Below are positions 1 through 58,973 of a stretch of 64,000 bases of DNA, piece by piece. The DNA comes from a virus. Both the position numbers and the translations under genes were made by a program. Under the pieces are notes generated by a model. It was given only the letters and a program-made list of their open reading frames with translations. It made no database searches and had not been told where the DNA came from. The stretch spans positions 1 to 64,000 of IMG/VR virus record IMGVR_UViG_3300045988_025287; one strand, given 5' to 3'. Every line of letters starts with the position of its first letter. The first letter of the stretch is position 1.

Positions 1-191
1 AAGGGGAGTAAAATCTGAGAGGGCTCGAAATTCCGTTTGAGATTATAATTATATAACGATAAGGTTTATTTAAGGTTTCTGTTTTGAAAATCTTCTTGCA
101 TAAACTAATAGTTCTTTATAGCGTAATATCTTCAGACTCATTGTCTGAGTTACTGCTGATTTACTCACGACTGCAACCTTTTATTAGTTAA

Positions 192-19751: not shown

Positions 19752-19823
19752 AGTAGTATGTTTTTATTATTTAACATACTACTATAACGGAATATTTTAA
19801 TTAAGGTTCCTCAATCGCGGCGA

Positions 19824-20949
19824 TTATTCTGCCTCCATGATTAATTCTCCGCAGGCTCTGGGGTCTCTAAGCATAATACCCATTTCACCAAGGAAGAATA
19901 CAGTATAACCGTCCTTACCATTAGATCTCAGAGTATTAATAGACTTACCATAGCCAGAAGGAAGAACTGCACCACCAGTAGTCCAAGTTACGAATTCACG
20001 ATCCTTACGAACTACCTTAACGATGTTAGCTTCACCATCACGTCTACCCAGATCCAGGAACGTCATACGATATGATTCCAGCGGTTTCAGAGTAACCGGA
20101 TGCAACTTACGATTGTAAGTAATATCGTCGTACAGCGGGAAATACTTCAGAGTCAACTCGATACCATTAGTCATCTTATAAGTCTTGAACTGACCACCGA
20201 AAGTAAGACTATCACCAGAACCAGTTACAAATACAGTATCAATCAGGTTCATGTTAACTACCTTTTCTTTCAGGATTCTATCGAATTCACGAATACCCAT
20301 TTCACCAGTCAATGCAACAAACTTACGTTCGTTAGTACCAAGTACATTGTAAGACAGGTCAAACAGGAAGTCTTCCAACAGTTCTGCAGTAAGATGAGTA
20401 TAGTAACGTCTATTAGACGGAGCAATCTGTTCCAACAGACCAGCACCAATAAATACCGGACGACCGTTAGTACCCTTCAGATTACAAGAACCATCTTTAT
20501 TTACGTTAGACTTCATGTAAACCAACATACGTTCACATCTCTTATACCATTCACGCAGAGCTACCCATTCCTGATAATCAGCCCACAAATAAGACTTCTT
20601 ACCAGTCTTAGGATCTTGCAAAGCAATAGCCATTACTGTAGAATAAGCTGAACCAGTAATATCATAGTTGATACGAATTGTAGTAAGATAATTACGCATC
20701 TTGAAGTGAGTATTATAGTTCAGGATATCACCCTCTTCACTGTATTCTTCAACAGCAGAAGCCAGACGAGATACTTGGCAACCCGGTTTCAAGAGTTCTG
20801 CAGGAATATAAGAAGTAGGCTGACCATCAGCTACAAAACAAGTATATACCCACAAGTTACCATCTTGATACGGAGCACCTGCTACACGTACTTGGAATTC
20901 CTTATCGTCAAATTCCAATACAGCAGTAGGACCAAACCAGTTATCTTCA
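19824..20949 (-). CDS. Major capsid protein, exon 2
   Basis: Frame is open from CEDNWFGPTAVLEFDDK. TAG-free and GC-richer. Exon 1 (344 nt) plus exon 2 (1126 nt) gives 1470 nt, or 489 aa, after the proposed splice ...TPIMLW-L-EDNWFGP. Confidence 0.65.
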
Positions 20950-21796
20950 CATTATATTCAACGTAATTCGTTAAATTACATTCGCTTAAAACGGTTTGTT
21001 ATTTTAAGCTGCTTACACTTTCATGTAAGATTAGACTATATCTTCATCCTTAATGGATGTTCCGCATTTCGCTTCACTTGAAGCTACGAGATCACTCTCT
21101 AGTCGTTGAACCTTCAAATCCTGAATGTCTACTCTTAAGTTCTTAAATATACCAGATTTAATGTATTTTCCAGTATTTGCATTTGCTCTTAATGCTTTTA
21201 AACTATCTTGAGATACTCCAAAATGTCTAGCAACATTCTTCATACCGATAATAGTAAACGATTCTCCATTAAAAACATTTGTAAATATAAAAGCTTTTCT
21301 AAGAGGTTTATCTCCTTTAAATCTATTTTGAATTTTAGAGTATAACATATTATCATCGTGTGAAACCCATTCAAGATTCTCTAAACAGTTATTCGTTCTG
21401 TTAAAATCTTTATGATTTACTTCTGATAAATTATCCGGATTATCTAAATACGTCATAGCTACTAATTTGTGAACTCTGAAGTAATAAGACTTTCCGTTTC
21501 CTCTTAAAGCTACTTTCAAATAACCATCTTTAGTTTTAGATGGATTAAAGAACTTATTAGTTTTAGTTGAATATACATCACCTTGTTTTGATATTAAATA
21601 ATCTTCAAAACCAGGTATTGGTTTCATATCAGTAATTTGCTTGGCTGCTGATTGTCCATTTTTATTATTATTCATAATTCTATATATTTATATTTTACTC
21701 TATGGTTTAAATATCTTTAGGAGTTTCCAGCAATTAACGGAATTATTCGATTGAAGTTTCCTTCAAAAGGACCTGTTTTAGTTTATAACTAAGTTA
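20950..21796 (-). mobile_element. Putative group I intron (about 847 nt) splitting the capsid gene and carrying an HNH ORF
   Basis: Capsid reading frame is broken by TAA at 21778 and resumes at 20949. The proposed 5' exon ends in T (21797) and the intron ends in G (20950), as group I introns require. Boundaries are inferred, not folded. Confidence 0.55.
21031..21675 (-). CDS. HNH homing endonuclease (intron-encoded), 214 aa
   Basis: IPGFEDYLISKQGDVYS (NUMOD4-like) and VNHKDFNRTNNCLENLEWVSHDDN (HNH). Confidence 0.8.
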   Translation of the reverse strand: MNNNKNGQSAAKQITDMKPIPGFEDYLISKQGDVYSTKTNKFFNPSKTKDGYLKVALRGNGKSYYFRVHKLVAMTYLDNPDNLSEVNHKDFNRTNNCLENLEWVSHDDNMLYSKIQNRFKGDKPLRKAFIFTNVFNGESFTIIGMKNVARHFGVSQDSLKALRANANTGKYIKSGIFKNLRVDIQDLKVQRLESDLVASSEAKCGTSIKDEDIV

Positions 21797-22140
21797 AGCC
21801 ATAACATAATCGGTGTATTGCCAAGACCTGCAGTTGAATTATCTGTAATAGCTTCGCCATTCCATTTTGCATCTCTAATTGTAACTGCTCTATCGGCATC
21901 AATCATTACATTCCACTCCCAGCTCGGTTGGTCAATAGTCATTACATTACCAAGACCACCAGTAAGCATATCCAAAGAAGTGTTGTAACCATTATCCTTA
22001 GTTCCGAATACATAAGACAACACGGTAGCAACCTGATATGGATTCTATTGAGAAGCCGCAGAAATCTTAGCGGTATCAATCAAATCACTGAACCATTTAC
22101 CTTTGTATAAAACTAAGTTATTTAGAATATTATTATCCAT
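21797..22140 (-). CDS. Major capsid protein, exon 1 (1 in-frame TAG)
   Basis: ATG at 22140: MDNNILNNLVLYKGKWFSDLIDTAKISAASQ-TAG-NPYQVATVLSYVFGTKDNGYNTSLDMLTGG... joins track ORF 21778..22023 in frame. Confidence 0.65.
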
Positions 22141-22175
22141 AAAATACTAGTAATTTTAATTTTTATTAGTTAATA

Positions 22176-23336
22176 TTAATCTGCACGTAATCTTCGCGCA
22201 AAAGAATTCCACATAGACTCGGTGCTAGTGTTATCCTGTTTCTTAGTCTTTCTACTTACTCCTGTTCTATTAAGACTATTCTTAAACTTGTTAATAGCTG
22301 CATTTTGACCTTTTACTTCGGCGGCTTTTACAAGTGTATCTCCTTTCATAGTAAAGTAGGCAGACTCAATTAAATTTTTTACGCTCTTAGACCAATCCTT
22401 TTGGAATTTAGTCATACCATCAGAGGTAGGCTTGAATATATATTCCAACAGTATCTGTTTATCCTTTTCAGGAATTTTAACACCGCGGATATTATCCATG
22501 CCCTTTATTTCGTTGACAACGGTATCAAAGTACTCCTGTTGGCGTTGAGCTGCAAGCTTAGCAGCATTTTCTTGATCTTTCAATAGCTGTTGTTTCTTAC
22601 TCTCTCTTATATCCTTAAGAGCTTCAGCAGCATCTTGAGACTCATCTTCAAGAATACCGGCTTCCTCATATTTAGTAAGTTTCTTTTCAATCTATTTAGC
22701 ATTAAAACCCTTTTCTTTAAGGAATTCTTTCAATACTAACTTCTGATTACTTTCATCTTCGAGATCGATATCATCAAGATCAATTTCATTGTCAATTGAG
22801 AAATAATCTCTCAAATTACCACCATTCTTAACAAACTTATCAAGTTGCTCAACTTCTTCACTAGCGTATTGTGGTACTGAGTTTTCTTCAATTACATCGT
22901 TAAAGTAATCAATAAGATCTTCAACGGTCTTGGGTTTATCATCATCCTCAATGTCATCCCAACCTAACTTTTCAGACAAAGAATCAAAGAAACCTGTTAC
23001 TATGGTAGTTTCATCAGTAGACTCTTCTGGTTCTTCTTCCTCAACTTCAGGTTCTTCTGTTTCTTCTTTTGTAGTAGTCTTAGGTTTAGCCTTAGGTTTA
23101 GATTTTACTTCTTCATCTTCTTCCTTAGGTTCTTCCTCTTCCTCAGGTTCAGTTTTAGTATTCTTACGAATATTATTTAATTCTTCTTCACTGAGTTCTT
23201 CTCCTACTCCTTCAAGATCAATTTTTGTTTCTTCCTCTTCCTCATTAGTAGGAGAAACAATAGGTTTATTCTTTACACTTGCTCCTGGCATGAGTTCTTC
23301 AAACACCTCAAAACCGTTCAATGTTATATTATCCAT
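22176..23336 (-). CDS. Scaffold-like acidic protein, 386 aa, 1 TAG
   Basis: Track ORFs 22692..23336 and 22176..22583 are in frame and joined by one TAG. Long E/K-rich low-complexity region. Lies immediately upstream of the capsid gene. Confidence 0.55.
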
Positions 23337-32492: not shown

Positions 32493-32500
32493 TCTTGTTC

Positions 32501-32659
32501 TTACTATTTGATGAGATTATTTAAAGCTTCTTTTATAGTTTTTCCTGTTTGTTTCTCTAATTCTCCCAACGCCATATTCCACATTTCCAGATTAATTGAA
32601 TACTCATCAAGTTCGTTCTGCATAAAAAAAGTTACATTCTTACCTCTAAGTTTATCCAT
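32501..32659 (-). CDS. Small ORF upstream of TerL, 52 aa (penultimate codon TAG)
   Basis: MDKLRGKNVTFFMQNELDEYSINLEMWNMALGELEKQTGKTIKEALNNLIK-TAG-TAA. Ends 9 nt before the TerL ATG. Confidence 0.4.
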
Positions 32660-32674
32660 ATTAGTACGCTTTAT

Positions 32675-32708
32675 ATTTAAAAGGGGCGCGTTTCACAACG
32701 AACCCCTT
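32675..32708 (-). terminator. Intrinsic terminator-like hairpin (minus strand)
   Basis: Minus-strand AAGGGG-16 nt-CCCCTT followed by TTAAAT. Lies between the structured tract and the small ORF/TerL. Confidence 0.5.
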
Positions 32709-33264
32709 CCATTCAAATGATATTTATATGTTTTTTAACAGAAATTGGGGAGATTTCTGTAGCTGTAACCTAGTTTCTTGAGCTAGGGATTTATACGCCG
32801 TATATTTAGTACTCCCCACCTGGGCTAACGTTTACCCCAGACTACCTGTTCACGATAACTACCTATCCAACAAGTTTCCTTCTGCTATTATAGTTTCAAA
32901 GGACTGGTATTTTAAATTAGTAGTCCCTGTAGGTATCGATCCCACTCCTCCCGGGTTCATGCTACTCTTACTTTTACATAAGCCTTCTCAGTGAGAAGTT
33001 GTAGTCTGGACTATTTCATGACCATATTCTACTAGAACTTAGGCCTCTCCCGTATAGTCTCTACGCCATTTATCAGCAGATGCTGAATTTAGTAAGCCAT
33101 CGCCAAAGTAATATCGCTATTACGAGGTTTCTGTTTGTTAGAGAGATTTTTCAATACATATTTCTACGTAAAGCTCCTACCTAAAAGAGCCGGGCGCGCT
33201 AGCCAGTACGCAAAGGGACAGTGCACGTGGATATTCTTACCCTCCACGTAAGGGTTCTGATGGT
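32709..33264 (-). ncRNA. ORF-free structured tract (about 556 nt), candidate ncRNA or leader of the packaging operon
   Basis: No minus-strand ORF. GC-richer than flanks. Helices at 33225-33231/33243-33249 and 32738-32745/32753-32760. The loop of the second helix (CTCCCCA) is complementary to GGGGAG at 32812-32817. Confidence 0.45.
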
Positions 33265-33402
33265 TTAGAACCAAGATTTAATTCTTTGCCATAATGACTT
33301 CTTTACAGGTTTGTTCAAATATTCAGAAGCTTCTTCAATCTGTCTAAATACTTCTTCTGTATCCTTAGTCAAGTCTATAGTAATCGTAAATTTCTTATTC
33401 AT
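33265..33402 (-). CDS. Small ORF, 45 aa
   Basis: MNKKFTITIDLTKDTEEVFRQIEEASEYLNKPVKKSLWQRIKSWF, TAA stop. Below the track threshold. Confidence 0.35.
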   Translation of the reverse strand: MNKKFTITIDLTKDTEEVFRQIEEASEYLNKPVKKSLWQRIKSWF

Positions 33403-33459
33403 AATATTTTCATTTATACACTATAACGTGTTGTTAATATTTAGTTATATTTTAATGTA

Positions 33460-33990
33460 TTATTTCGCCAACTCATATGGATTTACTTTAGCGTCTCCTT
33501 TAACTTTACCTATAGCTAATTCTTCAGCTTTAACCATTGTTTCTAGTGAATCAATACTCTTAAGTACTCCACCAACGGAAGTCATGCCAGCTAACAAGTC
33601 CTTAATCTTCTTTTCATCTAAAGTATCGTCTAATGACTCTTTATAGTACTTACTCACACTATCTAACTTTAGACGCATATTGTTTAACATTTGTAGAGCT
33701 CTAGTATTAAGTAAGGTTTTATATTCATCTTCACAAATCAATTCTTCTGCCGTCAATTTGTAATTCTCATCATCGAATATTTCCTTTTTCAGTTTAAGTT
33801 CTCTACTGTCTTCATCCATACTTTGTACATAAGGGCTATCCCATTTATTCATAAGTACAATGTAACTTATTACTTTAGTAGCATGCTCCTTATCAGGTTT
33901 ATCTGCATCCCACACTCTTCTAAAGCATGGGATGCCTATAGCATCTGGGTGTATTTTTACTTTACCTCCAATAAGATCAAATAGTTTCAT
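33460..33990 (-). CDS. Hypothetical protein, 176 aa
   Basis: Intact track ORF with TAA stop. No motif. Confidence 0.6.
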   Translation of the reverse strand: MKLFDLIGGKVKIHPDAIGIPCFRRVWDADKPDKEHATKVISYIVLMNKWDSPYVQSMDEDSRELKLKKEIFDDENYKLTAEELICEDEYKTLLNTRALQMLNNMRLKLDSVSKYYKESLDDTLDEKKIKDLLAGMTSVGGVLKSIDSLETMVKAEELAIGKVKGDAKVNPYELAK

Positions 33991-34291
33991 TCGTAAGAAC
34001 TTGTTTATTATCTTCTTTACTCCATCTTATAAGATCGTCTTTAGCAAAAGCATCAGAACAGACTATCGGCTTTAGATTCCACTTACTACTTACACTATCA
34101 TATTTACTTAATATAAGTACAATGTCTCCTAGTTTATAGTCTATTACTTCTTCTTCTGTTATTATTTGACCATCCTACTATGCTATATATATAGTTCTAC
34201 ATTCAAAGTTATCAGATACATTTTTAATGCTATTAGTATCTACTTTATATAAAATAGCATTACCGTATTGATCTATCAATAATTTATCCAT
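33977..34291 (-). CDS. Hypothetical protein, 104 aa, with tandem in-frame TAG TAG
   Basis: MDKLLIDQYGNAILYKV...YIA-TAG-TAG-DGQIITEEEV... TGA overlaps the next ATG. Absent from the track because of the TAGs. Confidence 0.5.
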
Positions 34292-34292
34292 A

Positions 34293-34667
34293 TTAACAAC
34301 CACACTGTACAGGTTCACAAGCACAATCACATTCAATATCACAAGAAGTAGATTTCTTTTTTTCTTCTTGCCCCTTTTCTAGCAATCTGTTATAGTGATT
34401 CTTTACTTCATCATTTTCAATAAAGATGTACTCTGCATCACTTTCTTTATCTATAGGATACAATTTTATTACCATAGTGCCTTTAGTAACACTCCTTCTC
34501 TCTTTAGAACCATCTTTCTTTGTATAGATCCACTCTCCATCTTCAGGAATATACCACGTATAGTCTACATAAAAATGATTTAGTAAGCTAACATTTTCTA
34601 CTTCTTTATCGTAACTAATAACCGTACCTCTATCTACTGAACAAATATACTTAATCATAATAATCAA
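34293..34667 (-). CDS. Hypothetical protein, 124 aa, Cys-rich C-terminus
   Basis: Track ORF. C-end STSCDIECDCACEPVQCGC. Confidence 0.55.
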   Translation of the reverse strand: MIIMIKYICSVDRGTVISYDKEVENVSLLNHFYVDYTWYIPEDGEWIYTKKDGSKERRSVTKGTMVIKLYPIDKESDAEYIFIENDEVKNHYNRLLEKGQEEKKKSTSCDIECDCACEPVQCGC

Positions 34668-34718
34668 TCAATTAAATAACCTAAATAATATTCTTTCTAT
34701 AATCTCGCTATAATTTCC

Positions 34719-35099
34719 TTAGCACGCCCCATCGGTACATTCGGATTCACATAATCTGGTTTTATTTGATAATTCTGTATTATCTACTAAAACTTCTCTA
34801 TCTCCTCCTGTATGCTCTACTTTTTTATATTCTTCATACTTCTTAAATAGCATATCACACATTGCATTTACCTGATCGACTCTACTAGGTTCTGCATTAC
34901 TCTTCCCATTATCTACTATAGTAGTAGTAATACTGTCAATTACATCATTTGTGAAATCTTCATAAGTAATTACGCCTTCATTAATTAATTCATCTACTTT
35001 GTTATATAGGCGCTTCATTTCCTTACTAAATGAACCATAGAGTGGTTTATTGTTTTCCACTTCTAATTTCCACATCATTTTACTTTCTTCAATTGTCAT
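34719..35099 (-). CDS. Hypothetical protein, 126 aa
   Basis: Track ORF. C-end RLCESECTDGAC. Confidence 0.55.
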   Translation of the reverse strand: MTIEESKMMWKLEVENNKPLYGSFSKEMKRLYNKVDELINEGVITYEDFTNDVIDSITTTIVDNGKSNAEPSRVDQVNAMCDMLFKKYEEYKKVEHTGGDREVLVDNTELSNKTRLCESECTDGAC

Positions 35100-35526
35100 A
35101 TTCTTTGTTTTTTAACTCATTACAGATAGTATTACTTATATTTCCTGCAGCCCATCCTACTAAGTAGGCATACGCTTCATTGCCGTCTTTAAAGTCTTGC
35201 GTATATAAACCTAATTGTTCACAAAAGTAATCTGCAACATGTACTGCCTCATGAGGAATCATATCTGGAGTAATATCTTCTGTACTAGTAACAGCTATCA
35301 CTATCACACCGTATTTATTATCACTCTTACGTATTACTTTACAAGTAACCATTCCTCCATCATATTTATCTATTTCTTGTAATAACTTGTTGTATTCACT
35401 TCCATCATTATTACCGTATACATCAAGAAATATAAAATATTTATCTAAATCCTCAATATTAGTACTTACAAATAATAGTCTAGGGTATATCTCAGGACTA
35501 TAAACATCATACGGTTTCTTTTTCAT
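35089..35526 (-). CDS. Hypothetical protein with HExxH motif, 145 aa
   Basis: Track ORF. DMIPHEAVHVADYF suggests a small metallopeptidase fold. Confidence 0.45.
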   Translation of the reverse strand: MKKKPYDVYSPEIYPRLLFVSTNIEDLDKYFIFLDVYGNNDGSEYNKLLQEIDKYDGGMVTCKVIRKSDNKYGVIVIAVTSTEDITPDMIPHEAVHVADYFCEQLGLYTQDFKDGNEAYAYLVGWAAGNISNTICNELKNKEYDN

Positions 35527-35701
35527 ATCTTTTCTTTAATTTGAATTTACCTAAGTAAGAGAATCTAACTGGTTTAGGATCTAAGTTAGAGATGATACTA
35601 TTAGTAAACCTAAATGGGCTGTTACATATTACTTCTATGATAGGGTATGGTATGTTATACTTGTTACTTAATTTAGTATATATACTCACTTGATTCCTCA
35701 T
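35507..35701 (-). CDS. Hypothetical protein, 64 aa
   Basis: Track ORF, overlaps its neighbours in operon style. Confidence 0.45.
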   Translation of the reverse strand: MRNQVSIYTKLSNKYNIPYPIIEVICNSPFRFTNSIISNLDPKPVRFSYLGKFKLKKRYEKETV

Positions 35702-36056
35702 TTAAATCTATCTTTTTGTAATACTTACATTCTTCTAAAGTAGAATAATCATTAAATGTATTAGGTCTTACTATATTGATTATAGCCTTGATATCTTCCC
35801 AATTTCTATCATTTACACAATTATCATAAACAGATTGTAGTTTGTGTATCTCCTGTTTACTATATTTACGTATAGGAGCATATGCAACAAAATTATATCT
35901 ATCTATTGTAAGTAACTCTATACTAGTAGGAATAATCTCAAACTTATTATATGGTAAGTCTCTCTTCTTTAACTTATTCCACAACTTAGTAAATATGTTA
36001 TATTCCTTCCAACATAATATAGTGCCAGGTCTTACTATTGTTGTTTTAATCTTCAT
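35673..36056 (-). CDS. Hypothetical protein, 127 aa
   Basis: Track ORF. Confidence 0.5.
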   Translation of the reverse strand: MKIKTTIVRPGTILCWKEYNIFTKLWNKLKKRDLPYNKFEIIPTSIELLTIDRYNFVAYAPIRKYSKQEIHKLQSVYDNCVNDRNWEDIKAIINIVRPNTFNDYSTLEECKYYKKIDLNEESSEYIY

Positions 36057-36423
36057 CTTTATTTACTCTTAATATTATAGTAATTTGTACTCTATCGCCG
36101 ATTATTTCAGGTATAAGCGCCTTATTTACTACAACTTCATCTTCAATCTTACCTTTAATTAATATACCTTGATTCTTAAACTTAGTTATATATCTACTGA
36201 GATTATCAGGAGTAATACCTAATACTTTTCTAATATACTTCCTATTTTCAGTAGATATTACATTCTTACTTATGTTAGGGAGCTTAGGAGTGTTAATATC
36301 TATTGCTATGAACGTAGCCAGTAACTCTAGCTCCCTATCAGTAAGATCAAGTATACCATTAAGGCTCTTTAAGAATTCTGTATTTAAATCGGCTTTGCTT
36401 ACGCTTTTTACCAATTTATTCAT
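36046..36423 (-). CDS. Possible winged-helix DNA-binding protein, 125 aa
   Basis: Track ORF. The segment ENRKYIRKVLGITPDNLSRYITKFKNQGIL looks HTH-like. Confidence 0.4.
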   Translation of the reverse strand: MNKLVKSVSKADLNTEFLKSLNGILDLTDRELELLATFIAIDINTPKLPNISKNVISTENRKYIRKVLGITPDNLSRYITKFKNQGILIKGKIEDEVVVNKALIPEIIGDRVQITIILRVNKDED

Positions 36424-36793
36424 TTGTTAACGTATCCTTAATTTTATTTAAAACCTTATTTAAGTTATAATATACTGTCTCAGCTTCTAACTTAACACAA
36501 GGCTGTATTTCGCCTTTATTTGCTTTTTCATTAGTCTCTTTTAAGTTACTTTCGTATTTCTTAAGTAAGTCATCAATGAGCTCTAAAGTAGCATCTACGT
36601 TATACTTACTTTCATCATCAACACTTAAAAGGTAACCTTCTTCACATAAGTAATCTGCAGTATCATAATCTAAAGACATCATTCTAGTGTAATTATCTTC
36701 AGCAATGTTAAATGATACTAAACCTGTTTCATCTTCTGCTAATACATCACCTTTCTTAGCAGAACCAAATTCCTTAATTACTTTGTAGCTCAT
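36416..36793 (-). CDS. Hypothetical protein, 125 aa
   Basis: Track ORF. Confidence 0.5.
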   Translation of the reverse strand: MSYKVIKEFGSAKKGDVLAEDETGLVSFNIAEDNYTRMMSLDYDTADYLCEEGYLLSVDDESKYNVDATLELIDDLLKKYESNLKETNEKANKGEIQPCVKLEAETVYYNLNKVLNKIKDTLTNE

Positions 36794-36839
36794 AATATTT
36801 ATTTTAAATGTTTATGTATCTATAAACGGTAGAATAAAT

Positions 36840-36870
36840 AAATGTTAAAATCTGTTAACATTTATTAACA
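36840..36870 (-). promoter_or_regulatory. TTAACA-box cluster (inverted repeat AAATGTTAA/TTAACATTT plus TTAACATTTATTAACA)
   Basis: Lies between the terminator at 36886-36913 and the gene start at 36793. The same 16-mer recurs at 38162-38177, with a variant at 40465-40481. Confidence 0.4.
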
Positions 36871-36885
36871 CTTATTATATAGATA

Positions 36886-36913
36886 ATAAAAAACCCTGAC
36901 TAACGCCAGGGTT
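36886..36913 (-). terminator. Intrinsic terminator (minus strand)
   Basis: Minus-strand AACCCTG-8 nt-CAGGGTT followed by TTTTTTATT, 25 nt after the stop of 36939..37298. Confidence 0.65.
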
Positions 36914-36938
36914 CATTCTAACAATGAGTTAAGCAAAT

Positions 36939-37298
36939 TTAAATTGTATTTGATATAGCAATTATATCATATGGTTTGACTAATTGACTATCCTTAAACA
37001 AATCAAAGTCCTTAGCAAACTTTTTATTATAAACAATAGTATCTCCTACTTTATATTCACATTCTGTTAAGCATGTAGGAACTTTCAGTACTACACCTGT
37101 TGAATACTCAGACTCTACCTCCTTAGTTTCAGTTTGCGTATCATACTTATTGAAACCATCTTCATCAACTTCACCTGTAGGAATCTGCTCTGTAATCTCT
37201 TTAGTAACCATGACAGGTGCTAGAGGTTTAACCAACACATCCTTCAACATAGTATACTTAATTCCATTTACTACTGTTTCTAGTACTTTATCTTCCAT
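36939..37298 (-). CDS. GroES/gp31-like co-chaperonin candidate, 119 aa
   Basis: Pattern LKDVLVKPL...(long acidic loop)...GVVLKV...VGDTIVY...LVKPYDIIAI parallels the GroES layout. By eye only. Confidence 0.4.
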   Translation of the reverse strand: MEDKVLETVVNGIKYTMLKDVLVKPLAPVMVTKEITEQIPTGEVDEDGFNKYDTQTETKEVESEYSTGVVLKVPTCLTECEYKVGDTIVYNKKFAKDFDLFKDSQLVKPYDIIAISNTI

Positions 37299-37329
37299 AA
37301 TATTCTATATTTAATACTCAAATAACGTA

Positions 37330-37539
37330 TTATTTCTTATTTTGTTTCTCTAATATTAATATATTTCCGCCATTAGAACAACAATAACGTCTAGCCAAAG
37401 TAGGGCAGTTTCTATTTAAGAAATAACAGCCATCACAACTACCTATTGGATTAGACTCTATTATAAACTATTTGTTGTCTATTGTTACTGGTATTCTATC
37501 TCTTACTATCTTTGCTAATTCCTAATCATTTAATGTCAT
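37330..37539 (-). CDS. Small Cys-rich protein, 69 aa, 2 TAG; paralog of 37837..38028
   Basis: MTLND-TAG-ELAKIVRDRIPVTIDNK-TAG-FIIESNPIGSCDGCYFLNRNCPTLARRYCCSNGGNILILEKQNKK. Compare GMCQGCDLYNYYCPSRITSLCTQGFILKRDKQ. Confidence 0.5.
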
Positions 37540-37840
37540 AGTTTTTTCCTTTTCCGTGTTTATCTAAGTAAAGCATAGCTATTGCATTCCAAGCTACTTG
37601 ACTTAGGTGATGACAACCAGTTTCATTATCAACTTCATTGCCCTTCTCATATTCAAGTAAGTGCCTTAACATAGCTGCTTTATAACGTTGGTAGCCATTC
37701 TCTAAGTTCTGCCAATTATTATCACCATATTTAATAGAACCTGCTGTATATACTTTAACAATATCTTCAATCTCTTCTAATGGTAGCAAGTCCCAACGTA
37801 GCTTACCATCTTGGTAATCATTCTTCTTTCCTTCTTTCAT
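37526..37840 (-). CDS. Hypothetical protein, 104 aa (GKLRWDLLP motif, possibly nucleotide pyrophosphohydrolase-associated domain)
   Basis: Track ORF with TGA stop. The domain assignment is from memory of the motif only. Confidence 0.35.
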   Translation of the reverse strand: MKEGKKNDYQDGKLRWDLLPLEEIEDIVKVYTAGSIKYGDNNWQNLENGYQRYKAAMLRHLLEYEKGNEVDNETGCHHLSQVAWNAIAMLYLDKHGKGKNYDIK

Positions 37841-45821: not shown

Positions 45822-46211
45822 GACTAGACCTTCTTTTTAGTTAATATTAGAGTCTAGTATACTCAGTCTGTGAAGATAGAGTATACGTCCTCAGAAAATG
45901 ACAAACATGTGGGGCGGGAGTAAATAAGTAAAACTAAGCAGTAGTATTATATATCAGTAAGGATACTACGCCGAATCTGATTGTTTTGTTTATTTATAGT
46001 CGTGCGGACGTTAAAATCATGTACTCCAATAAGATTTAGTTTGACAGCTATTTCTGCTTACGAGTTAAAACTATAGTGAGAGTCATAGTAAGTAACGATT
46101 GTAGTCGTTTATCTTTGTCTTATAACAAATGCTATAAACTAAGTTGGCACTAACTTAATTAAATCCTGAGTGCCCAGGCGTCATTATTAACAATTTAAAT
46201 TTTTTAGAAAC
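45822..46211. ncRNA. ORF-free tract (about 390 nt) with the shared GTGCGGACGTTAAAATCA box
   Basis: No ORF in the track. Box at 46002-46019 is 17/18 identical to 44092-44109. GGAGTAAA motif at about 45917. Confidence 0.35.
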
Positions 46212-47421: not shown

Positions 47422-47663
47422 TTTAAATTGTTAGTAAAATGGTGGATTCAGTCAACCCAAAGAACTGTTTAAGACTAGAACCCTAATGGAAATTGTCAAT
47501 CAAGAGTACAATGGACTATACAACGGTCAACCACATTATATGTAGGTCAGGAGAAGGCAGGGAGTCTCCTGTTGAATAAGAAGTACAAATAGACAGGAAC
47601 AGTTCTTTTTAATTATTACTTAAATTTACTAAAAGATATGAGTAAAACAAAAAACAAATTAAA

Positions 47664-48403: not shown

Positions 48404-49048
48404 CTAAATCAAAACAAATAAAAGAGGTTCCAAGCTTAGAATCTTTGAATCAATAGCTTAGTATGTGAGTCGGAAATAGTTCTTTTGAACTCTAGGGCCT
48501 GAGGCATACAAGGACCTGAATTAACAGGTCTCATACAGAATTTTAAATCAGTTATGGGGAACTACCGTGAACTACTGATCATAAGTCTGAGATCGCGACA
48601 ATAAGATTGTCCTCTAGAAATAGAGAAACGCTCTAGTCGTGACATCAAGTTTAGACTGAATAATATGAATCTTTGAATCGTTTAAAGTATCTATACTTTA
48701 ACTATTATTCGTGTATTATCAAGATCAGTATAAGAGAACTAACCATTCTCAAGACCATAGGGTATATGACTTTGGTCGGTCATATACCCACAATAGAGTA
48801 GGTATAATACCGAACTGTAAAAAGAATTGACTGTTAGGTCTATTTATGCCTTCAGGTGACCGCGGGGCAGTACCGCGCACATCCACTAAAAAAATATAAT
48901 AAGGGTGTGAAATAGTATTGAACCGTTGAAACAGAATAGAATAGGTCAATAAGCAGATAACTGGCAATACAAGTTATGTAACGGACTATACTGGTATCGC
49001 AGCGTGATAACAGAGTCCAACGGCTAAGCTAATGTCGTAGAAAGCTGG
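48404..49048 (+). ncRNA. ORF-free structured tract (about 645 nt) abutting a tRNA-like element
   Basis: 11-bp perfect hairpin GGGTATATGAC/GTCATATACCC (48760-48789). CGCGG/CCGCG helix (48861-48877). Direct repeat GAATCTTTGAATC at 48439 and 48667. The only track ORF here (minus, 48749..48967) spans the hairpins. Confidence 0.45.
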
Positions 49049-49128
49049 AGTAAGGATAGTACTCAGATGGTAGAGCGGTGAGATAATATCAAAAGCTGGT
49101 ATCGGAGGTTCGAGTCCTCCCCTTACTA
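49049..49128 (+). tRNA. Aberrant tRNA-like element, anticodon undetermined
   Basis: Perfect acceptor AGTAAGG/CCTTACT, T arm GGAGG-TTCGAGT-CCTCC and D-arm-like ACTCAGATGGTAGAGC. However, 3 extra nt precede the D arm and I could find no 5-bp anticodon stem in GGTGAGATAATATCAAAAGCTGGTATC. Confidence 0.4.
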
Positions 49129-49167
49129 CAAATAAAAAATTAAGTTTAATCAATAAATTAATTTGAA

Positions 49168-49446
49168 ATGGGATTAATGAATTTTATTAGACAGAATCTT
49201 CCAGAATCATGGGAGAAAGCTGCAACAGAGATGAGAATGAAGACTGAATTAATAACTCGTCTTCATAATGTAGTACCTCGTGCTTATAAGAATAAGTATC
49301 ACTACAAAGAAGGAATATCTTATATTAGAAGAGTATTCAATACTAAATGTGATATAATACATTTAGTAGATGCTACTGATATAGATATCACTAAATGGAA
49401 TGAATTAAGTAGTAAAATAAAAGAATACGAATATCAATGCGTGTAA
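49168..49446 (+). CDS. Hypothetical protein, 92 aa
   Basis: Track ORF. Confidence 0.5.
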   Translation: MGLMNFIRQNLPESWEKAATEMRMKTELITRLHNVVPRAYKNKYHYKEGISYIRRVFNTKCDIIHLVDATDIDITKWNELSSKIKEYEYQCV

Positions 49447-49622
49447 GATATTTTGCTTGGTTTGACTCTAAACATGAAAGAACAGAGTTCATTAACTTAC
49501 TCAGATCAGCTAAATCTGATATTGATGCAGTTAATAAAGTGATGCAAAAATATCCAGAGTTAACTTTATCAGAAGTATCTGGAATAGTAAATAACTTTAA
49601 AAAAGAAATTAATCAACCATGA
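49437..49622 (+). CDS. Hypothetical protein, 61 aa
   Basis: Track ORF. AVNKVMQKYPELTLSEVSGIV weakly resembles the L12-CTD helix pattern. Confidence 0.4.
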   Translation: MRVRYFAWFDSKHERTEFINLLRSAKSDIDAVNKVMQKYPELTLSEVSGIVNNFKKEINQP

Positions 49623-50080
49623 GACTCAATCATCCTGGTATCTACAGAATTGTAGGTGAAAACTTTGAGCTTCTTGCCAATATAATTGGAGAAGTTCCTT
49701 GTATGAGAATTACTTCTGCACTATTAGTTAATAACTTAGTACAGAAAGGAGAATTTACTATACTTCCTGAAGACTCTATTGAAATTCAGAGCGTATTAGC
49801 GAATCCCGACAAATTTGTTTTTCTAGAGTATGAATACTCAGAAATATGTTCATTACCATCTTATCGTCAATCGATTCATGGTACAAAAATGCCCGCTATA
49901 ACTGACGAACAGTTAAAGACATTTACTAATAAATACCTTGAAGATATTGGAATATATGGACGAGGTGTAGCCGCAACTAAAGCTTATATATTAGAGACTA
50001 CAGGTTGGTCATTAGCCCAAATTAATGTAGTACTAATGAAAATAGCTAAAAGAGTAAAGCAGCAATATGTTAATTTATAG
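49619..50080 (+). CDS. Hypothetical protein, 153 aa (TAG stop, TAA 11 codons later)
   Basis: Track ORF. Confidence 0.5.
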   Translation: MRLNHPGIYRIVGENFELLANIIGEVPCMRITSALLVNNLVQKGEFTILPEDSIEIQSVLANPDKFVFLEYEYSEICSLPSYRQSIHGTKMPAITDEQLKTFTNKYLEDIGIYGRGVAATKAYILETTGWSLAQINVVLMKIAKRVKQQYVNL

Positions 50081-50459
50081 TTTGACAAACCATATATATA
50101 CCACTTGGGGAGTTAAATATAGTTCATTTAACTGGCGACCTGAGTGGTATACCTTTTTAAGAATACAAAAAAGGGAATTAAAAGAACTAGAATTTCATGA
50201 ATCTTATAAAGTTCAAACTGTAAAATATTTAATATTTTGGTTTGATAATAGGATAATACAAAAGATAGGAGTCGATAAAGATTTAACTCTAAAGGTTCGT
50301 ATAAGAATATTATGTGGATTAATTAATAATACTCCTACTAGTGTACTTACTAGACCTATGAAAATAGAATTCATGGAATGTATATGGGATACTTATAATA
50401 AATTCTACAAAGATTGGTATGAATATTATTGTAGGAATGTACTAGAATTGCCATTTTAA
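50067..50459 (+). CDS. Hypothetical protein, 130 aa
   Basis: Track ORF. Confidence 0.5.
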   Translation: MLIYSLTNHIYTTWGVKYSSFNWRPEWYTFLRIQKRELKELEFHESYKVQTVKYLIFWFDNRIIQKIGVDKDLTLKVRIRILCGLINNTPTSVLTRPMKIEFMECIWDTYNKFYKDWYEYYCRNVLELPF

Positions 50460-50507
50460 GTCTATAGAGTCTTGGTTGACTCTATAGGCACACTAAAGCC
50501 CGTAATT

Positions 50508-51068
50508 ATGACAGATGAAGAAAGACAACAGCTTTTAGATCTGATCAAGCAGGCTAAAGAAGGTAAACAATATGCCTTCACACAGCTTTATAATCGTTAT
50601 CACAGAATTATATACAATACTATATATAATATTGTACACAATAAGGATGTAACAGATGATTTAGTATCTGTAACGTTTACTAAAGCTTTCTTTAAGATAG
50701 CTAGTTATATTAATCATATTTCATTTGAAATGTGGTTAAAAACTATCGCTATAAATAGTAGTATTGATTATATACGACGTACTAAAAAAGAGAAGTATGA
50801 TTATGAGTTAGATAATGATAATAACTGTCTACAGGTAAGCAGTTCGGCCGACAGCTCACCAGAAGATGTCTACATCTATCATGAGACGGATAGTAAGTTA
50901 TCTGATGCACTAAACAGACTTCGCTATAAGTATAGGTATATACTTGAACTACGCACAGTTCAGAATCTCTCTTACAAGGAGATTGCTGAACATCTTGAGC
51001 TCTCTGAGTCTCAAGTAAAATCTCGCCTTAATAAAGCGAGAGAGAAATTAAAACAATTGTTAAACTAA
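50508..51068 (+). CDS. ECF-type (sigma-70 family, group 4) RNA polymerase sigma factor, 186 aa from ATG (track ORF starts at TTG 50472)
   Basis: Region 2: AFTQLYNRYHRIIYNTIYNIV...DDLVSVTFTKAFFKI...FEMWLKTIAINSSIDYIRR. Region 4: ALNRLRYKYRYILELRTVQNLSYKEIAEHLELSESQVKSRLNKAREKL. Confidence 0.85.
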   Translation: MTDEERQQLLDLIKQAKEGKQYAFTQLYNRYHRIIYNTIYNIVHNKDVTDDLVSVTFTKAFFKIASYINHISFEMWLKTIAINSSIDYIRRTKKEKYDYELDNDNNCLQVSSSADSSPEDVYIYHETDSKLSDALNRLRYKYRYILELRTVQNLSYKEIAEHLELSESQVKSRLNKAREKLKQLLN

Positions 51069-51084
51069 AAAACATTTACTAATT

Positions 51085-51456
51085 ATGACACCAGCAATTA
51101 TTGGGCTATTAACTGTAGCATTTATCCTTGCACGGTTATTCCGTAGTACAGGAATGTGGTGGAAACTTGTTTTCGCCATTATGGCTGGTCTATTAGTAGG
51201 TATTTTAAGTAAGGAAGTAGTTAAGTCAGATAATGATAAGACTACTTCTCTTACTAGTTTAGTTAGCACCATGAGTAATGATGATGCTTTAACATGCATG
51301 CAAAGCTTAGTAGCTACAGTGACAGAAGGTACTACCATTCGCCTTACTGGGGTTGCAGGTTACATTGTTAAAGATGAAGAATTATTCGATGCACTAACTA
51401 AAAGTAATACCTTTACTAATGGACGTGACTCACCAGAAATAGAGGATGATAGTTAA
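51085..51456 (+). CDS. Membrane protein directly downstream of the sigma factor (anti-sigma candidate), 123 aa
   Basis: Two N-terminal TM helices (AIIGLLTVAFILARLF, LVFAIMAGLLVGIL). The gene order mimics ECF sigma/anti-sigma pairs. No anti-sigma motif recognised. Confidence 0.4.
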   Translation: MTPAIIGLLTVAFILARLFRSTGMWWKLVFAIMAGLLVGILSKEVVKSDNDKTTSLTSLVSTMSNDDALTCMQSLVATVTEGTTIRLTGVAGYIVKDEELFDALTKSNTFTNGRDSPEIEDDS

Positions 51457-51531
51457 CCTCTTAAACTAATCCATCTTTTTAATTGTACTTAATAATAACT
51501 TTTATTTTAACACTTTAAAACATTATCAAAA

Positions 51532-53046
51532 ATGGCAAAAGAAATGAGTAAGGCTGAAAGAAAGGCAGCCTTGAAAGCAGCAAAAGCAGCAGCAAAAGCT
51601 GAAGCTAAAGTAAACAACACTGAGAACAAGAAAGAGGAAACTAATCCTCAGGTAGATAACAAGCCGAAAGATGCTAAAGTAGAGGATGCAAAGAAAGCTC
51701 CTACTACAGCTAAGGAAACTAAGGTTCAGGCGAAGAAGGATGCCCCTAAAAGTCCGGATAAGCCTAAGAAGAAGGAAGAGAAAATTCCTACAATCATTCC
51801 TGAAGATGCAACAGGTAAGAACAGCCCTGAAAAGAAAGCTGTAGAACGTGCTGCAAACCTTATCACAGGAATTCCTACGGCCGGTATACCTATTGGTTCA
51901 AGAGAATCATCTGTTGATGGTAAGGCTATGTTAGCATTTGTAATGCAACAGCGTTATGCTAACAATGAAGAACTCAAGAAGCAATATCCTGAGTTATATG
52001 CAGACATCAATCGTAGCATTGATGTAGTTACTTTGTTAGCTCTTGTCGATGTACGTCAAGACTTGTTCGACCGTGGTGAACGTGGCGAATTGCAGTTACA
52101 GATAGCTGCAGACCAAGTATTACCGCTGCAAAGTATGGCAGAAATGCTAGGTATTAAACTAGCTCCTGCTAAAGCTCTGCCTGGGAATGATGGGCAAATG
52201 TCTATTAACTTCTCAGAAAGTGAAGTACCTACAGAACTTGCAAACAGCAAGCCAAAAGTAGAAATTCCAGAGCTTGATCCTAACAAGATTACTAATGATG
52301 AGGAATTGAAAACTGCCCTTAATTACCTCATCTCTAAAGAGAAGAATGTGGCAGAAAATATAGTTAACACTGTAGAATGGTATCGTGTATATCGCGGCCT
52401 GAAAGAAACTAATGCAGATAAGAAGCTTGCATTAGACGAAAAGACAGTTACAGATTGGATTAATGAGATATTCTCTATTATCCAACCTACAGCCATCTTA
52501 CGTGGTTTAGGTCGTGCTGTATACTTATATACTTCACAGACAGGTTCACCGTGTATGGCTCACTCTATCATGCATACACATATGTCTAAGGCTGGTTGGA
52601 GTGAAGAACAAGTAGCAGAAGCATTACGTGCTTTAATTGGAGAAAACTTCCGTTATAAACTGAAGGATGATCCTGAAGCAAAGCCTGAAGAAGATAAAGC
52701 AATTAATGCTATTACTGGCTTACTAGGCAATGACTATATTGATAAGTTATTTGCCGACTATACTATTACTACTGATGGTGTAGAAGACAGTAAGAAAGTT
52801 GAACTTGAAGCTGCACGTGAAGTTGCCCGTAAGGTTCTAGGGAGTATTCGTACCAATTACTTTGACAAACAGAAGGAGACTCCTACGCTTGATAAGATGC
52901 GTATGGTAGTAGGTCAGATTATTAATCTGTATCGAAATCCGGCTGATCGTCTTGCAGAGTATTGTCAAGGAGATTTAATCGCTCCAAAGGAAGACGAATA
53001 TCCTAAGAATGAAGAGAAATCTGAAGGGACTGAAAAAAAAAACTAA
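51532..53046 (+). CDS. Hypothetical protein, 504 aa, with K/A-rich basic N-terminal region
   Basis: Intact track ORF. N-terminus KAERKAALKAAKAAAKAEAK... No catalytic motif recognised. Confidence 0.6.
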   Translation: MAKEMSKAERKAALKAAKAAAKAEAKVNNTENKKEETNPQVDNKPKDAKVEDAKKAPTTAKETKVQAKKDAPKSPDKPKKKEEKIPTIIPEDATGKNSPEKKAVERAANLITGIPTAGIPIGSRESSVDGKAMLAFVMQQRYANNEELKKQYPELYADINRSIDVVTLLALVDVRQDLFDRGERGELQLQIAADQVLPLQSMAEMLGIKLAPAKALPGNDGQMSINFSESEVPTELANSKPKVEIPELDPNKITNDEELKTALNYLISKEKNVAENIVNTVEWYRVYRGLKETNADKKLALDEKTVTDWINEIFSIIQPTAILRGLGRAVYLYTSQTGSPCMAHSIMHTHMSKAGWSEEQVAEALRALIGENFRYKLKDDPEAKPEEDKAINAITGLLGNDYIDKLFADYTITTDGVEDSKKVELEAAREVARKVLGSIRTNYFDKQKETPTLDKMRMVVGQIINLYRNPADRLAEYCQGDLIAPKEDEYPKNEEKSEGTEKKN

Positions 53047-53117
53047 ACTGGTTTAAAAAGTTTCTTTTAAAAATTCATATCTTAGAAGAATAACCATTCT
53101 AATAAATATCATATCAA

Positions 53118-53519
53118 ATGAATAATAGAATGTTAACTGTAGTTGGAATGTTTGTTGTCAGTGTATTCATTGGTAGGCAAATGTTTGCAACTACAGAAGT
53201 TATACAGGCACAGCCTGTTATACCCTCTATAGTGGAGTTACCTAACTTCCCTAAAGTAATAAAAGAGGAGAAAAAGTCTGTAGATGAGATAAATGTCGAA
53301 GTCGACTTATCTACATTAGAAGTATCTGTGAAAGGAACAACAGACGCAAAAGTGAATGTAAAAACTACTGGTGAACCAAAGCCAGTAGTTAAGTGGAAAA
53401 CTAAAGTAATAGAGAAGACGAATTCAACAGGATATCCGAAAGTAAAAGCTATAAGTAAGGTATCTGATGACGAATCACCGGCAACTCCATTAACAATAGT
53501 AGATAAATATGAACAATAA
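53118..53519 (+). CDS. Hypothetical protein with N-terminal signal/TM segment, 133 aa
   Basis: Track ORF. Confidence 0.5.
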   Translation: MNNRMLTVVGMFVVSVFIGRQMFATTEVIQAQPVIPSIVELPNFPKVIKEEKKSVDEINVEVDLSTLEVSVKGTTDAKVNVKTTGEPKPVVKWKTKVIEKTNSTGYPKVKAISKVSDDESPATPLTIVDKYEQ

Positions 53520-58880: not shown

Positions 58881-58951
58881 TCTCATGTAGCTCAGTGGTA
58901 GAGCCGCTACTATGTAGTGTGAACGCGTTGGTTCGAGTCCAACCATGAGAT
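58881..58951 (+). tRNA. Non-canonical tRNA-like gene; central triplet UAU (Ile-like) if it folds as a tRNA
   Basis: Good acceptor TCTCATG/CATGAGA, D arm GCTC-AGTGGTA-GAGC and T arm GTTGG-TTCGAGT-CCAAC. The anticodon region CGCTAC-TAT-GTAGTG forms a 6-bp stem with a 3-nt loop (or 4 bp plus loop ACTATGT, with C at position 33). Confidence 0.45.
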
Positions 58952-58973
58952 CTAACTTTTAAATACTTATAAT

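Follow-up and report, generated by a model that had tools for sequence, protein, structure and literature searches.

A 64,000-nucleotide stretch of viral DNA (positions 1 to 64,000 of IMG/VR record IMGVR_UViG_3300045988_025287; hereafter the window) encodes a bona fide group-4, or extracytoplasmic function (ECF), sigma factor of 186 amino acids (aa), followed directly by a 123-aa partner protein with two transmembrane (TM) helices. The sigma gene is vertically conserved in the crAss-like phage family Suoliviridae, and a class of promoter-like elements of the form AAC-N16-CGTTA(T/A) is present on the late strand, where TAG is recoded as a sense codon. On balance, these sequence features suggest that the sigma factor probably directs host RNA polymerase (RNAP) to phage late genes via ECF-type promoters; the partner shows no sign of being a conventional anti-sigma factor. 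The existence of the sigma factor is not new, because it is already annotated in RefSeq; as far as our literature search reached, the gene is annotated but uncharacterised. What is new in this analysis is the element class, which, together with its possible coupling to a suppressor tRNA, is the part worth following up.

Bases 49000-53500 of the window are 97.6% identical to crAssphage cr53_1 (NC_055889.1), which is classified as Crassvirales; Suoliviridae; Loutivirinae; Blohavirus americanus. The Suoliviridae, or “delta” crAss-like phages, are described as the crAss group that is largest in the human gut virome (PMC7886860) and as lacking any cultured isolate (reviewed in PMC10136315). From about 41.5 to 64 kb, the plus strand of the window carries standard-code genes, including replication genes, small open reading frames (ORFs), tRNAs and several structured RNAs, and the sigma gene lies in this early/middle block. 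Structural and late genes occupy the minus strand from 40.4 kb down to 0.2 kb, and they form long ORFs only with TAG as a sense codon; this reading lifts coding coverage from 20.4 to 39.0 kb, and single genes then contain up to 18 in-frame TAGs. For the comparison across the family, we surveyed 13 crAss-like records, all of them Suoliviridae and together representing all five subfamilies: Loutivirinae (cr53_1, cr4_1, cr113_1, cr56_1), Boorivirinae (cr10_1, cr1_1), Bearivirinae (cr6_1), Uncouvirinae (cr125_1, cr118_1) and Oafivirinae (cr124_1, cr130_1, cr273_1, Bohxovirus).

An ECF sigma factor conserved across the Suoliviridae

Profile searches bore out the sigma-70 region 2 and region 4 signatures of the ECF group that a first-pass annotation had recognised from the sequence alone. 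Both Pfam hidden Markov models (HMMs) that it had named for a check score above their cut-offs, namely Sigma70_r4_2 (PF08281; 5e-15, 55.3 bits against 25.7, residues 130-181) and Sigma70_r2 (PF04542; 2.4e-11, 43.7 bits against 24, residues 27-94), as do Sigma70_ECF (9e-8, 32.7 bits against 21.1) and Sigma70_r4 (PF04545; 2.5e-10). The NCBIfam model TIGR02937 (sigma70-ECF) gives a full-length match of 98.6 bits (cut-off 42.9), and PHROG 1740, “RNA polymerase sigma factor”, matches at 6.8e-25. The small size of the protein and its lack of region 1.1 and of a sigma-3 domain are those of an ECF factor; the sole Sigma70_r3 signal, at 15.8 bits, is below the cut-off and lies over the region-4 helix-turn-helix.

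The top sequence match in the PDB is SigW of B. subtilis (5wuq, E 7.7e-20), an ECF01 factor with which the phage protein shares a two-domain sigma-2/sigma-4 architecture aligned end to end (residues 11-185). The region 2 motif (F..WL..IA.N..ID..RR) is conserved between the two proteins, and so is the region 4.2 recognition helix (VKSRLNKAREKL in the phage protein, VKTRIHRGREAL in SigW). The phage protein is, nevertheless, not a SigW equivalog, scoring 102.6 bits against a cut-off of 209 with PRK09641 and 92.1 against 243.1 with TIGR02948. Since it falls far below the cut-offs of all named NCBIfam equivalog models, those for SigW included, it is a generic ECF sigma factor, and the name “RNA polymerase sigma-W factor”, which RefSeq gives to its 98.4% identical counterpart in cr53_1, is a nearest-neighbour label only. 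The limits of the sigma and partner genes in the first-pass annotation proved exact and agree with the RefSeq coding sequences of cr53_1 (YP_010112241.1 and YP_010112240.1).

By tblastn, the sigma factor matched 76 phage records, among them other phages in which ECF-like sigmas are annotated (Lak megaphages and a Microcystis phage). The 120 listed homologues, of 386 at E <= 1e-10, are all at least 48% identical, and the long contigs among those listed are phage-sized (about 95-107 kb). The partner has 46 homologues, including long contigs, and these occur only on phage contigs of about 95-100 kb. Identity to the sigma factor of the window is 76% in cr4_1, 50% in cr6_1 and about 32% in cr124_1. 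The gene order is the same in 13 of 13 records: (a permuted transfer-messenger RNA (tmRNA)-like RNA), small ORFs, the sigma gene and then ORFs of about 115-140, 460-570 and 130-155 aa. In three records the small ORF after the sigma gene is unannotated or truncated and appears on translation. This synteny across subfamilies and the phage-sized contigs of the homologues indicate that the pair is an ancestral, vertically inherited feature of the Suoliviridae.

In the literature that we searched, we found neither a characterised sigma factor of crAss phages or Crassvirales nor a characterised phage ECF/anti-sigma pair. A sigma factor is not mentioned in the main text of the 2021 comparative-genomics paper, the 2023 Crassvirales review or the crAss001 transcriptome paper, and a 2026 mouse-virome catalogue names “an RNAP sigma factor” solely among the annotations enriched in the Zeta subtype. 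A late-region gene annotated as “RNA polymerase sigma factor/ubiquitin-like protein” was considered as a second sigma and rejected: its product matches Pfam DUF7841 (1.9e-42) and carries no sigma domain, and the sigma-factor annotation is probably misleading. This gene corresponds to KNV47_gp67 of cr53_1 (6364-6999) and has orthologues in cr4_1, cr6_1 and cr125_1.

Promoter-like elements and stop-codon recoding on the late strand

A scan of the intergenic DNA yielded the bipartite element (G/A)nAAC-N16-CGTTA(T/A). Its core, AAC-N16-CGTTA, occurs five times in the window against 1.22 expected, a count that none of 100 dinucleotide shuffles reached; the minus strand holds four of the five copies, each of them intergenic. 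For the comparison of strands and spacers, the expected count is the product of n(AAC) and n(CGTTA) divided by the length. On the late-sense strand, the window, cr4_1 and cr6_1 hold four, two and four sites (0.7, 0.7 and 0.5 expected), which combine to 10 against 1.9. Counts match expectation for spacers of 14, 15, 17, 18 and 19 nt, for the antisense strand and for the early block. Every one of the 10 hits is intergenic or at the last codons of a gene, although only 8.9% of the late region of the window is intergenic.

The elements of the window (Table 1) recur at orthologous positions in its relatives. The one close to the late-block head, whose spacer is 17 nt, has orthologues in cr4_1 (76217), cr6_1 (31885) and cr125_1 (80426). 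Before the chaperonin-like gene, cr4_1 has AGAAC-N16-CGTTATA (78178) and cr6_1 has GTAAC-N16-CGTTAAT (31199), with differing spacer sequences, and the equivalents of the site ahead of the small ORF, suppressor tRNA and terminase gene are CAAC-N15-CGTTTAG in cr4_1 and ATAAC-N16-CGTTATA in cr6_1. The holin site reads GAAAC-cttaaataaaccttat-CGTTATATAATTATAATCTC in the window, GGAAC-ataataataccttaca-CGTTATATAATTATAATCTC in cr4_1, from which cr125_1 differs by one spacer base, and AGAAC-atacgcataatgagta-CGTTATAG in cr6_1. At all four of these positions the relatives keep both boxes around diverged spacers. Recurrence in cr125_1 is limited to the holin, late-head and ThyX-head sites; the region of the weak variant before the first minus-strand gene is conserved there. 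The element is also found before many homing-endonuclease genes on either strand, as would be expected of selfish genes adapted to the late promoter class of the phage.

An AAC -35 box with a CGT -10 box is the hallmark of ECF promoters, and the candidate GAAAC-N16-CGTTA resembles the SigW consensus TGAAAC-N16-CGTA (PMC5758882). By analogy, this likeness to the boxes of SigW, the closest solved relative of the phage sigma, supports a link between the phage sigma and the elements. The TTAACA boxes, which the first-pass annotation had put forward for a -35/-10 motif of the minus-strand operons, turned out not to be the -35 part of this element; they form a different motif, TTAACAnTTTAA, placed shortly before plus-strand start codons, and the 504-aa gene behind the partner has its own copy 14 nt upstream of its ATG. 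Two further candidates were set aside. GGAA-N15-20-CCGTT occurs twice against 0.51 expected and is weak evidence when taken alone, because both copies precede homing endonucleases in the split capsid gene. The k-mer ACGTTAAA, with five intergenic copies and no coding one, was rejected as a promoter box, most copies being in or beside ribozyme-like RNAs: two end the two Hatchet ribozymes and one is inside RAGATH-6.

The proposed mechanism is as follows. Once made, the phage sigma would bind host core RNAP, and the resulting holoenzyme would be guided to phage promoters that read (G/A)nAAC-N16(+/-1)-CGTTA(T/A). Such promoters would head the late TAG-recoded units, namely the start of the late block, the chaperonin-like gene, the small ORF with the suppressor tRNA and terminase, and the lysis cassette, and would also precede many homing-endonuclease genes. 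Because they stand at the heads of late units, the sigma would set the timing of the late programme and perhaps that of the switch in genetic code. That an ECF sigma may redirect host RNAP to minus-strand, TAG-containing genes, as first suggested from the sigma gene, thus gains support from the conserved AAC-N16-CGTTA upstream of those units.

Phage sigma factors that time middle or late transcription include gp28 and gp33/34 of SPO1 and gp55 of T4. As in those systems, a phage sigma would here replace that of the host on core RNAP for later phage genes; unlike those highly diverged proteins, the present sigma is canonical and detected by standard HMMs, and no link to a co-activator or clamp is evident for it. 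To our knowledge, the handover from virion RNAP to host RNAP in crAss-like phages is known only for phi14:2. In this phage, a virion RNAP transcribes the early genes and the rifampicin-sensitive host RNAP the middle and late ones, the late genes being on the opposite strand block (bioRxiv 10.1101/2020.03.07.982082, Drobysheva et al.), which agrees with the transcription scheme given in the first-pass annotation. Compared to phi14:2, the Suoliviridae would add an ECF sigma of their own and an AAC/CGT promoter class.

One of the candidate promoters precedes an amber-suppressor tRNA. This tRNA(CUA), of 73 nt, lies within the minus-strand gap 32493-33459 and is missed by ARAGORN at default settings, being split between anticodon positions 35 and 36 by a group-I-like intron. 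The splice sites were placed by group I rules, under which the 5' exon ends in a U paired with a G in P1 and the intron ends in a G, and the spliced sequence gives a tRNA with anticodon CUA. With the Rfam model Intron_gpI the insert reaches 21.3 bits (E 0.0048), a weak match that stays under the gathering score. An uninterrupted tRNA(CUA) is found at the same locus in cr4_1, cr6_1 and cr124_1. Most of the minus-strand genes at 33460-37840, upstream of the suppressor tRNA, are free of in-frame TAG; downstream of it, the terminase and many other structural genes carry 13-18 in-frame TAGs.

A suppressor tRNA(CUA) at the boundary of TAG-poor and TAG-rich genes is also a feature of the “code change modules” of recoded phages (Borges et al., as given in 10.64898/2026.08.21.746148; Yutin et al. 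2021, PMC7886860). Unlike the modules portrayed there, the present tRNA is split by a group-I-like intron and has an ECF-type box ahead of it, which suggests sigma control; if the sigma reads this box, it would gate the code switch. Neither an intron in a suppressor tRNA nor an ECF-type box before one was found described in the literature. Intron-split tRNAs of this kind could explain recoded crAss-like genomes that have been reported with “no detectable suppressor”. With the suppressor tRNA behind one of the boxes, a link between transcription timing and stop-codon recoding is possible. More broadly, a family-wide ECF sigma with its candidate promoter class provides a concrete hypothesis for the late-gene switch, would offer a means of predicting the late transcription units of uncultured genomes and is a potential orthogonal sigma/promoter pair for Bacteroidota engineering.

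A number of observations weigh against late promoters read by the phage sigma. There are only 4-7 candidate sites per genome, two of the four exact sites of the window precede intron-borne homing endonucleases, and the position weight matrix (PWM) was trained on sites that it then recovers, which is partly circular. In cr125_1 the element is not enriched (one site at N16 against 0.9 expected, by regular expression), and in cr124_1 (Oafivirinae), the record with the sigma of about 32% identity, the element class is absent and no alternative motif was found. As a sigma-less negative control, crAss001 had to be rejected, its late half containing 44 CpG and 4 CGT in 50 kb; being almost CpG-free, it leaves the comparison without a clean negative control. 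(Bases 1-50000 of crAss001 contain 44 CG, 4 CGT and 0 ACGT, compared with 1299 GC dinucleotides; in the 64 kb of the window, CG occurs 1017 times.) Furthermore, the middle promoters of phi14:2 resemble primary-sigma promoters, with -35/-10 boxes of that type, and are transcribed by the E. coli sigma-70 holoenzyme, no phage sigma being reported (10.1101/2020.03.07.982082), and the boxes could be recognised by an ECF sigma of the host. Because the sites are few, the PWM is circular, cr125_1 and cr124_1 gave null results and crAss001 is CpG-poor, the sigma-promoter link is something that we infer on good grounds and do not present as a result, and the same holds for everything past the ECF identity of the protein.

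If the boxes were read by a host ECF sigma, or were not promoters at all, the phage sigma might mainly reprogramme host genes, for example an envelope-stress-like regulon. Bacteroidota encode many ECF sigmas for AAC/CGT-type promoters (PMC5758882 and general knowledge), and the element class is undetectable in cr124_1 despite its sigma, both of which would fit such a role. However, the enrichment is strand- and spacing-specific, the positions before late units are conserved in sigma-carrying phages, conserved boxes around free spacers are promoter-like behaviour, and no reader of the boxes is simpler to assume than the sigma of the phage itself; we regard this alternative as very unlikely.

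The membrane protein encoded behind the sigma gene

The partner was described in the first pass as a 123-aa protein with two N-terminal TM helices, and on this hydropathy and AlphaFold2 agree. Hydrophobic segments span residues 1-19 and 23-41, and the AlphaFold2 model (36-sequence alignment) has helices at 2-18 and 24-47, followed by low-confidence coil; beyond the TM helices, the predicted local distance difference test (pLDDT) is 45-63 as means of 10-residue blocks, and the predicted template modelling score (pTM) is 0.22. A two-TM ORF stands behind the sigma gene, as in the window, in 11 of 12 related genomes, the ORF of cr130_1 having a single segment. Although overall identity among the orthologues is only 13-55%, dropping to 13-29%, R17, D121 and the terminal S123 hardly vary from one subfamily to another, and 12 of the 13 partner proteins share a short acidic C-terminal motif, ..(I/F/Y)-x-D-(D/T/S/M)-S. 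Within the subfamily, the motifs VATVTEGTT and NGRDSPxIEDDS are conserved in the part predicted to be disordered, and 12 of 13 orthologues have a net acidic C-terminal domain. Across the 13 orthologues, there are 1-4 Lys/Arg in the TM1-TM2 loop and 2-5 in the 15 residues that follow TM2; a periplasmic C-terminus, beyond the reach of the sigma, is no less likely than a cytoplasmic one.

The partner and its 12 orthologues gave no match in Pfam, NCBIfam, PHROG or the PDB apart from sub-threshold hits to membrane-protein families, and the partner itself has no PDB sequence match even at E 10. YuiB was rejected as its family, the match being only sub-threshold and probably due to TM composition. 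The partner ORF starts 16 nt past the stop codon of the sigma gene, and this spacing suggests that the two are probably co-transcribed. Such tight spacing is the rule in this operon, the four genes upstream of the pair overlapping one another by 4-14 nt, and is therefore not specific to the pair. A role as the main holin was also rejected: the gene is placed in the early/middle block beside the sigma gene, and the relatives carry a separately annotated holin with a LysB-like cassette in their late region. Taken together, the partner is probably a conserved small inner-membrane protein co-transcribed with the sigma gene.

The first-pass annotation saw in the two genes a mirror of cellular sigma/anti-sigma pairs, a likeness that comes down to adjacency and TM helices. 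As with SigW and RsiW, a membrane protein is encoded directly downstream of the sigma gene; RsiW, however, combines a zinc-binding anti-sigma domain at its N-terminus with one TM helix and an extracytoplasmic domain, whereas the partner lacks these and starts with two TM helices. Short or disordered anti-sigmas are nonetheless known, such as CnrY (with a class II anti-sigma domain), NepR and FlgM. The partner resembles them in being small and having little stable fold alone, and its membrane anchor is as in CnrY. By this analogy, it might be an unconventional membrane-anchored anti-sigma that sequesters the sigma via its acidic disordered C-terminus or the ..D-x-S end until a signal or proteolysis. 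The gene is indeed adjacent and downstream in the window and in 12 of 12 related genomes from five subfamilies, often with stop and start overlapping or 4-17 nt apart, and the invariant residues and subfamily motifs described above would also fit a binding function. Yet none of the 13 orthologues matches an anti-sigma family in Pfam or NCBIfam, as a class I anti-sigma domain would, no HxxxCxxC zinc motif is present, and TM1 begins at residue 2, which leaves no N-terminal cytoplasmic domain. AlphaFold2 predicts no folded soluble domain, the ambiguous topology is compatible with a periplasmic C-terminus, and the spacing is general in the operon. No sequence similarity to CnrY, NepR or FlgM was found, and in contrast to CnrY, with its N-terminal cytoplasmic sigma-binding peptide, the sizeable soluble part of the partner is C-terminal and on an ambiguous side of the membrane. 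An anti-sigma function is thus unlikely, and a protein that is not a sigma antagonist is the more likely of the two. Distinctly unlikely is the most far-reaching scheme, in which the sigma would be a master switch of transcription and translation, its AAC-N16-CGTTA promoters activating the intron-split suppressor tRNA, and with it TAG-to-Gln recoding, along with the packaging and lysis genes, and the partner a new, domain-less membrane anti-sigma that restrains the sigma until it is due.

T4 Imm is a two-TM protein that blocks the entry of superinfecting DNA, and it is quite possible that the partner is likewise unrelated to the sigma and shares only its operon, as an early/middle inner-membrane protein that, for instance, blocks DNA entry upon superinfection or modulates the envelope or lysis timing. 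Its two TM helices with an acidic, Ser/Thr-rich tail and no folded domain would suit such a protein, as would its expression from the standard-code early/middle block and the separate holin and LysB-like cassette of the relatives; moreover, the 504-aa protein and the 133-aa TM protein encoded downstream are equally conserved neighbours. Only the architecture speaks in favour of a specific function of this kind, however, since the partner has no homology to Imm, Sp or known exclusion proteins. The partner would matter only if it proved to bind the sigma.

Neighbouring RNA elements and other features

Expression of the sigma gene itself may be subject to control by RNA structure. In seven Suoliviridae, the stem of the hairpin before the sigma gene varies in sequence and keeps its 12 pairs, 11 of them with compensatory double changes (RNAalifold). 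The similar hairpin before the permuted tmRNA heads the same gene string; both have 11-12 bp and TTGGT-type loops. Since the loop and inner stem of the cr10_1 version resemble a tRNA T-arm minihelix (GGGGTTCGACTCCCC), the hairpins may be tRNA-like processing signals or attenuators. The hairpin before the sigma gene is a candidate for a second point at which sigma expression is controlled, and it is a better-supported candidate for the checkpoint that the first-pass annotation had assigned to the membrane protein.

Table 1. Location of the genes, RNAs and promoter-like elements discussed in the text (window coordinates; nt, nucleotides)
Feature	Coordinates	Strand	Basis or context
Gene of the ECF-type sigma factor (186 aa, with just the sigma-2 and sigma-4 domains)	50508..51068	+	ATG start; Pfam, NCBIfam, PHROG and SigW matches
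123-aa two-TM protein, acidic predicted-disordered C-terminal region ending ...GRDSPEIEDDS	51085..51456	+	hydropathy, AlphaFold2, synteny
504-aa Suoliviridae-only protein	51532..53046	+	Lys/Ala-rich disordered N-terminus, helical C-terminal domain; synteny; AlphaFold2 mean pLDDT 68
133-aa protein with N-terminal hydrophobic segment	53118..53519	+	ORF list, synteny
Promoter-like TGTAAT-N15-CGTTATA (weak variant)	40432..40459	-	13 nt before first minus-strand gene 39952-40425; PWM 12.0; weakest of the set
Promoter-like GTAAC-N17-CGTTATA	38126..38154	-	near late-block head; PWM 16.6, outside the training set
Promoter-like GAAAC-N16-CGTTATT	37321..37348	-	29 nt before ATG of 119-aa chaperonin-like gene 36939-37298
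Promoter-like ATAAC-N15-CGTTATA	33422..33448	-	before small ORF, suppressor tRNA and terminase gene
Promoter-like GAAAC-N16-CGTTAAT	21733..21760	-	before HNH homing endonuclease inside split capsid gene
Promoter-like GGAAC-N16-CGTTATA	19783..19810	-	before GIY-YIG homing endonuclease inside split capsid gene
Promoter-like GAAAC-N16-CGTTATA	52..79	-	about 100 nt upstream of holin gene just past the left end of the window
Amber-suppressor tRNA(CUA), split by 228-nt group-I-like intron	32920..33220, intron 32958-33185	-	ARAGORN with intron option
Split major capsid gene	19125-23336	-	GIY-YIG and HNH homing endonuclease ORFs between exon-like pieces, ECF-type box before each
TTAACAnTTTAA motif	46187, 51507, 57434, 58025	+	ends 13-15 nt before ATG of four plus-strand genes; may be promoter or translation signal
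12-bp hairpin, loop TTGGTT, then CACTAAA	50460..50489	+	about 18 nt before sigma start codon
Similar hairpin	48760..48789	+	before permuted tmRNA heading the same gene string
Permuted tmRNA	48826-49007	+	Rfam 56.1 bits against 47; no ARAGORN call; heads gene string with sigma
RAGATH-6, RAGATH-7, two Hatchet ribozymes, RAGATH-9	42625-42775, 42870-43092, 44016-44112, 45887-46022, 47448-47608	+	all above Rfam gathering score

At the position of the permuted tmRNA, relatives annotate a tmRNA of 357-450 nt. Besides the ribozymes and RAGATH RNAs of the early block, further elements ending in ACGTTAAA at about 54722 and 55814 may be more ribozyme-like RNAs.

Of the two conserved genes downstream of the partner, the first encodes the 504-aa protein, which tblastn places in Suoliviridae-like records only; a homologue search, AlphaFold2 and Foldseek against the PDB and BFVD returned only uncharacterised Suoliviridae-like proteins for it. 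The 133-aa protein has no Pfam match. In the split capsid region, no group I intron reaches the Rfam gathering score.

Positions 1-1500 of the window align in two pieces to 36258-38919 of cr53_1, with about 1.2 kb unmatched that overlap the reverse-transcriptase gene of cr53_1. This gene resembles those of diversity-generating retroelements and lies beside an Mtd-like tail protein; part or all of it may be absent from the window. Finally, ARAGORN calls a tRNA-His on the plus strand (58881-58952) with the anticodon ATG at the unusual position 32, and the same sequence scores 46 bits as a tRNA in Rfam.

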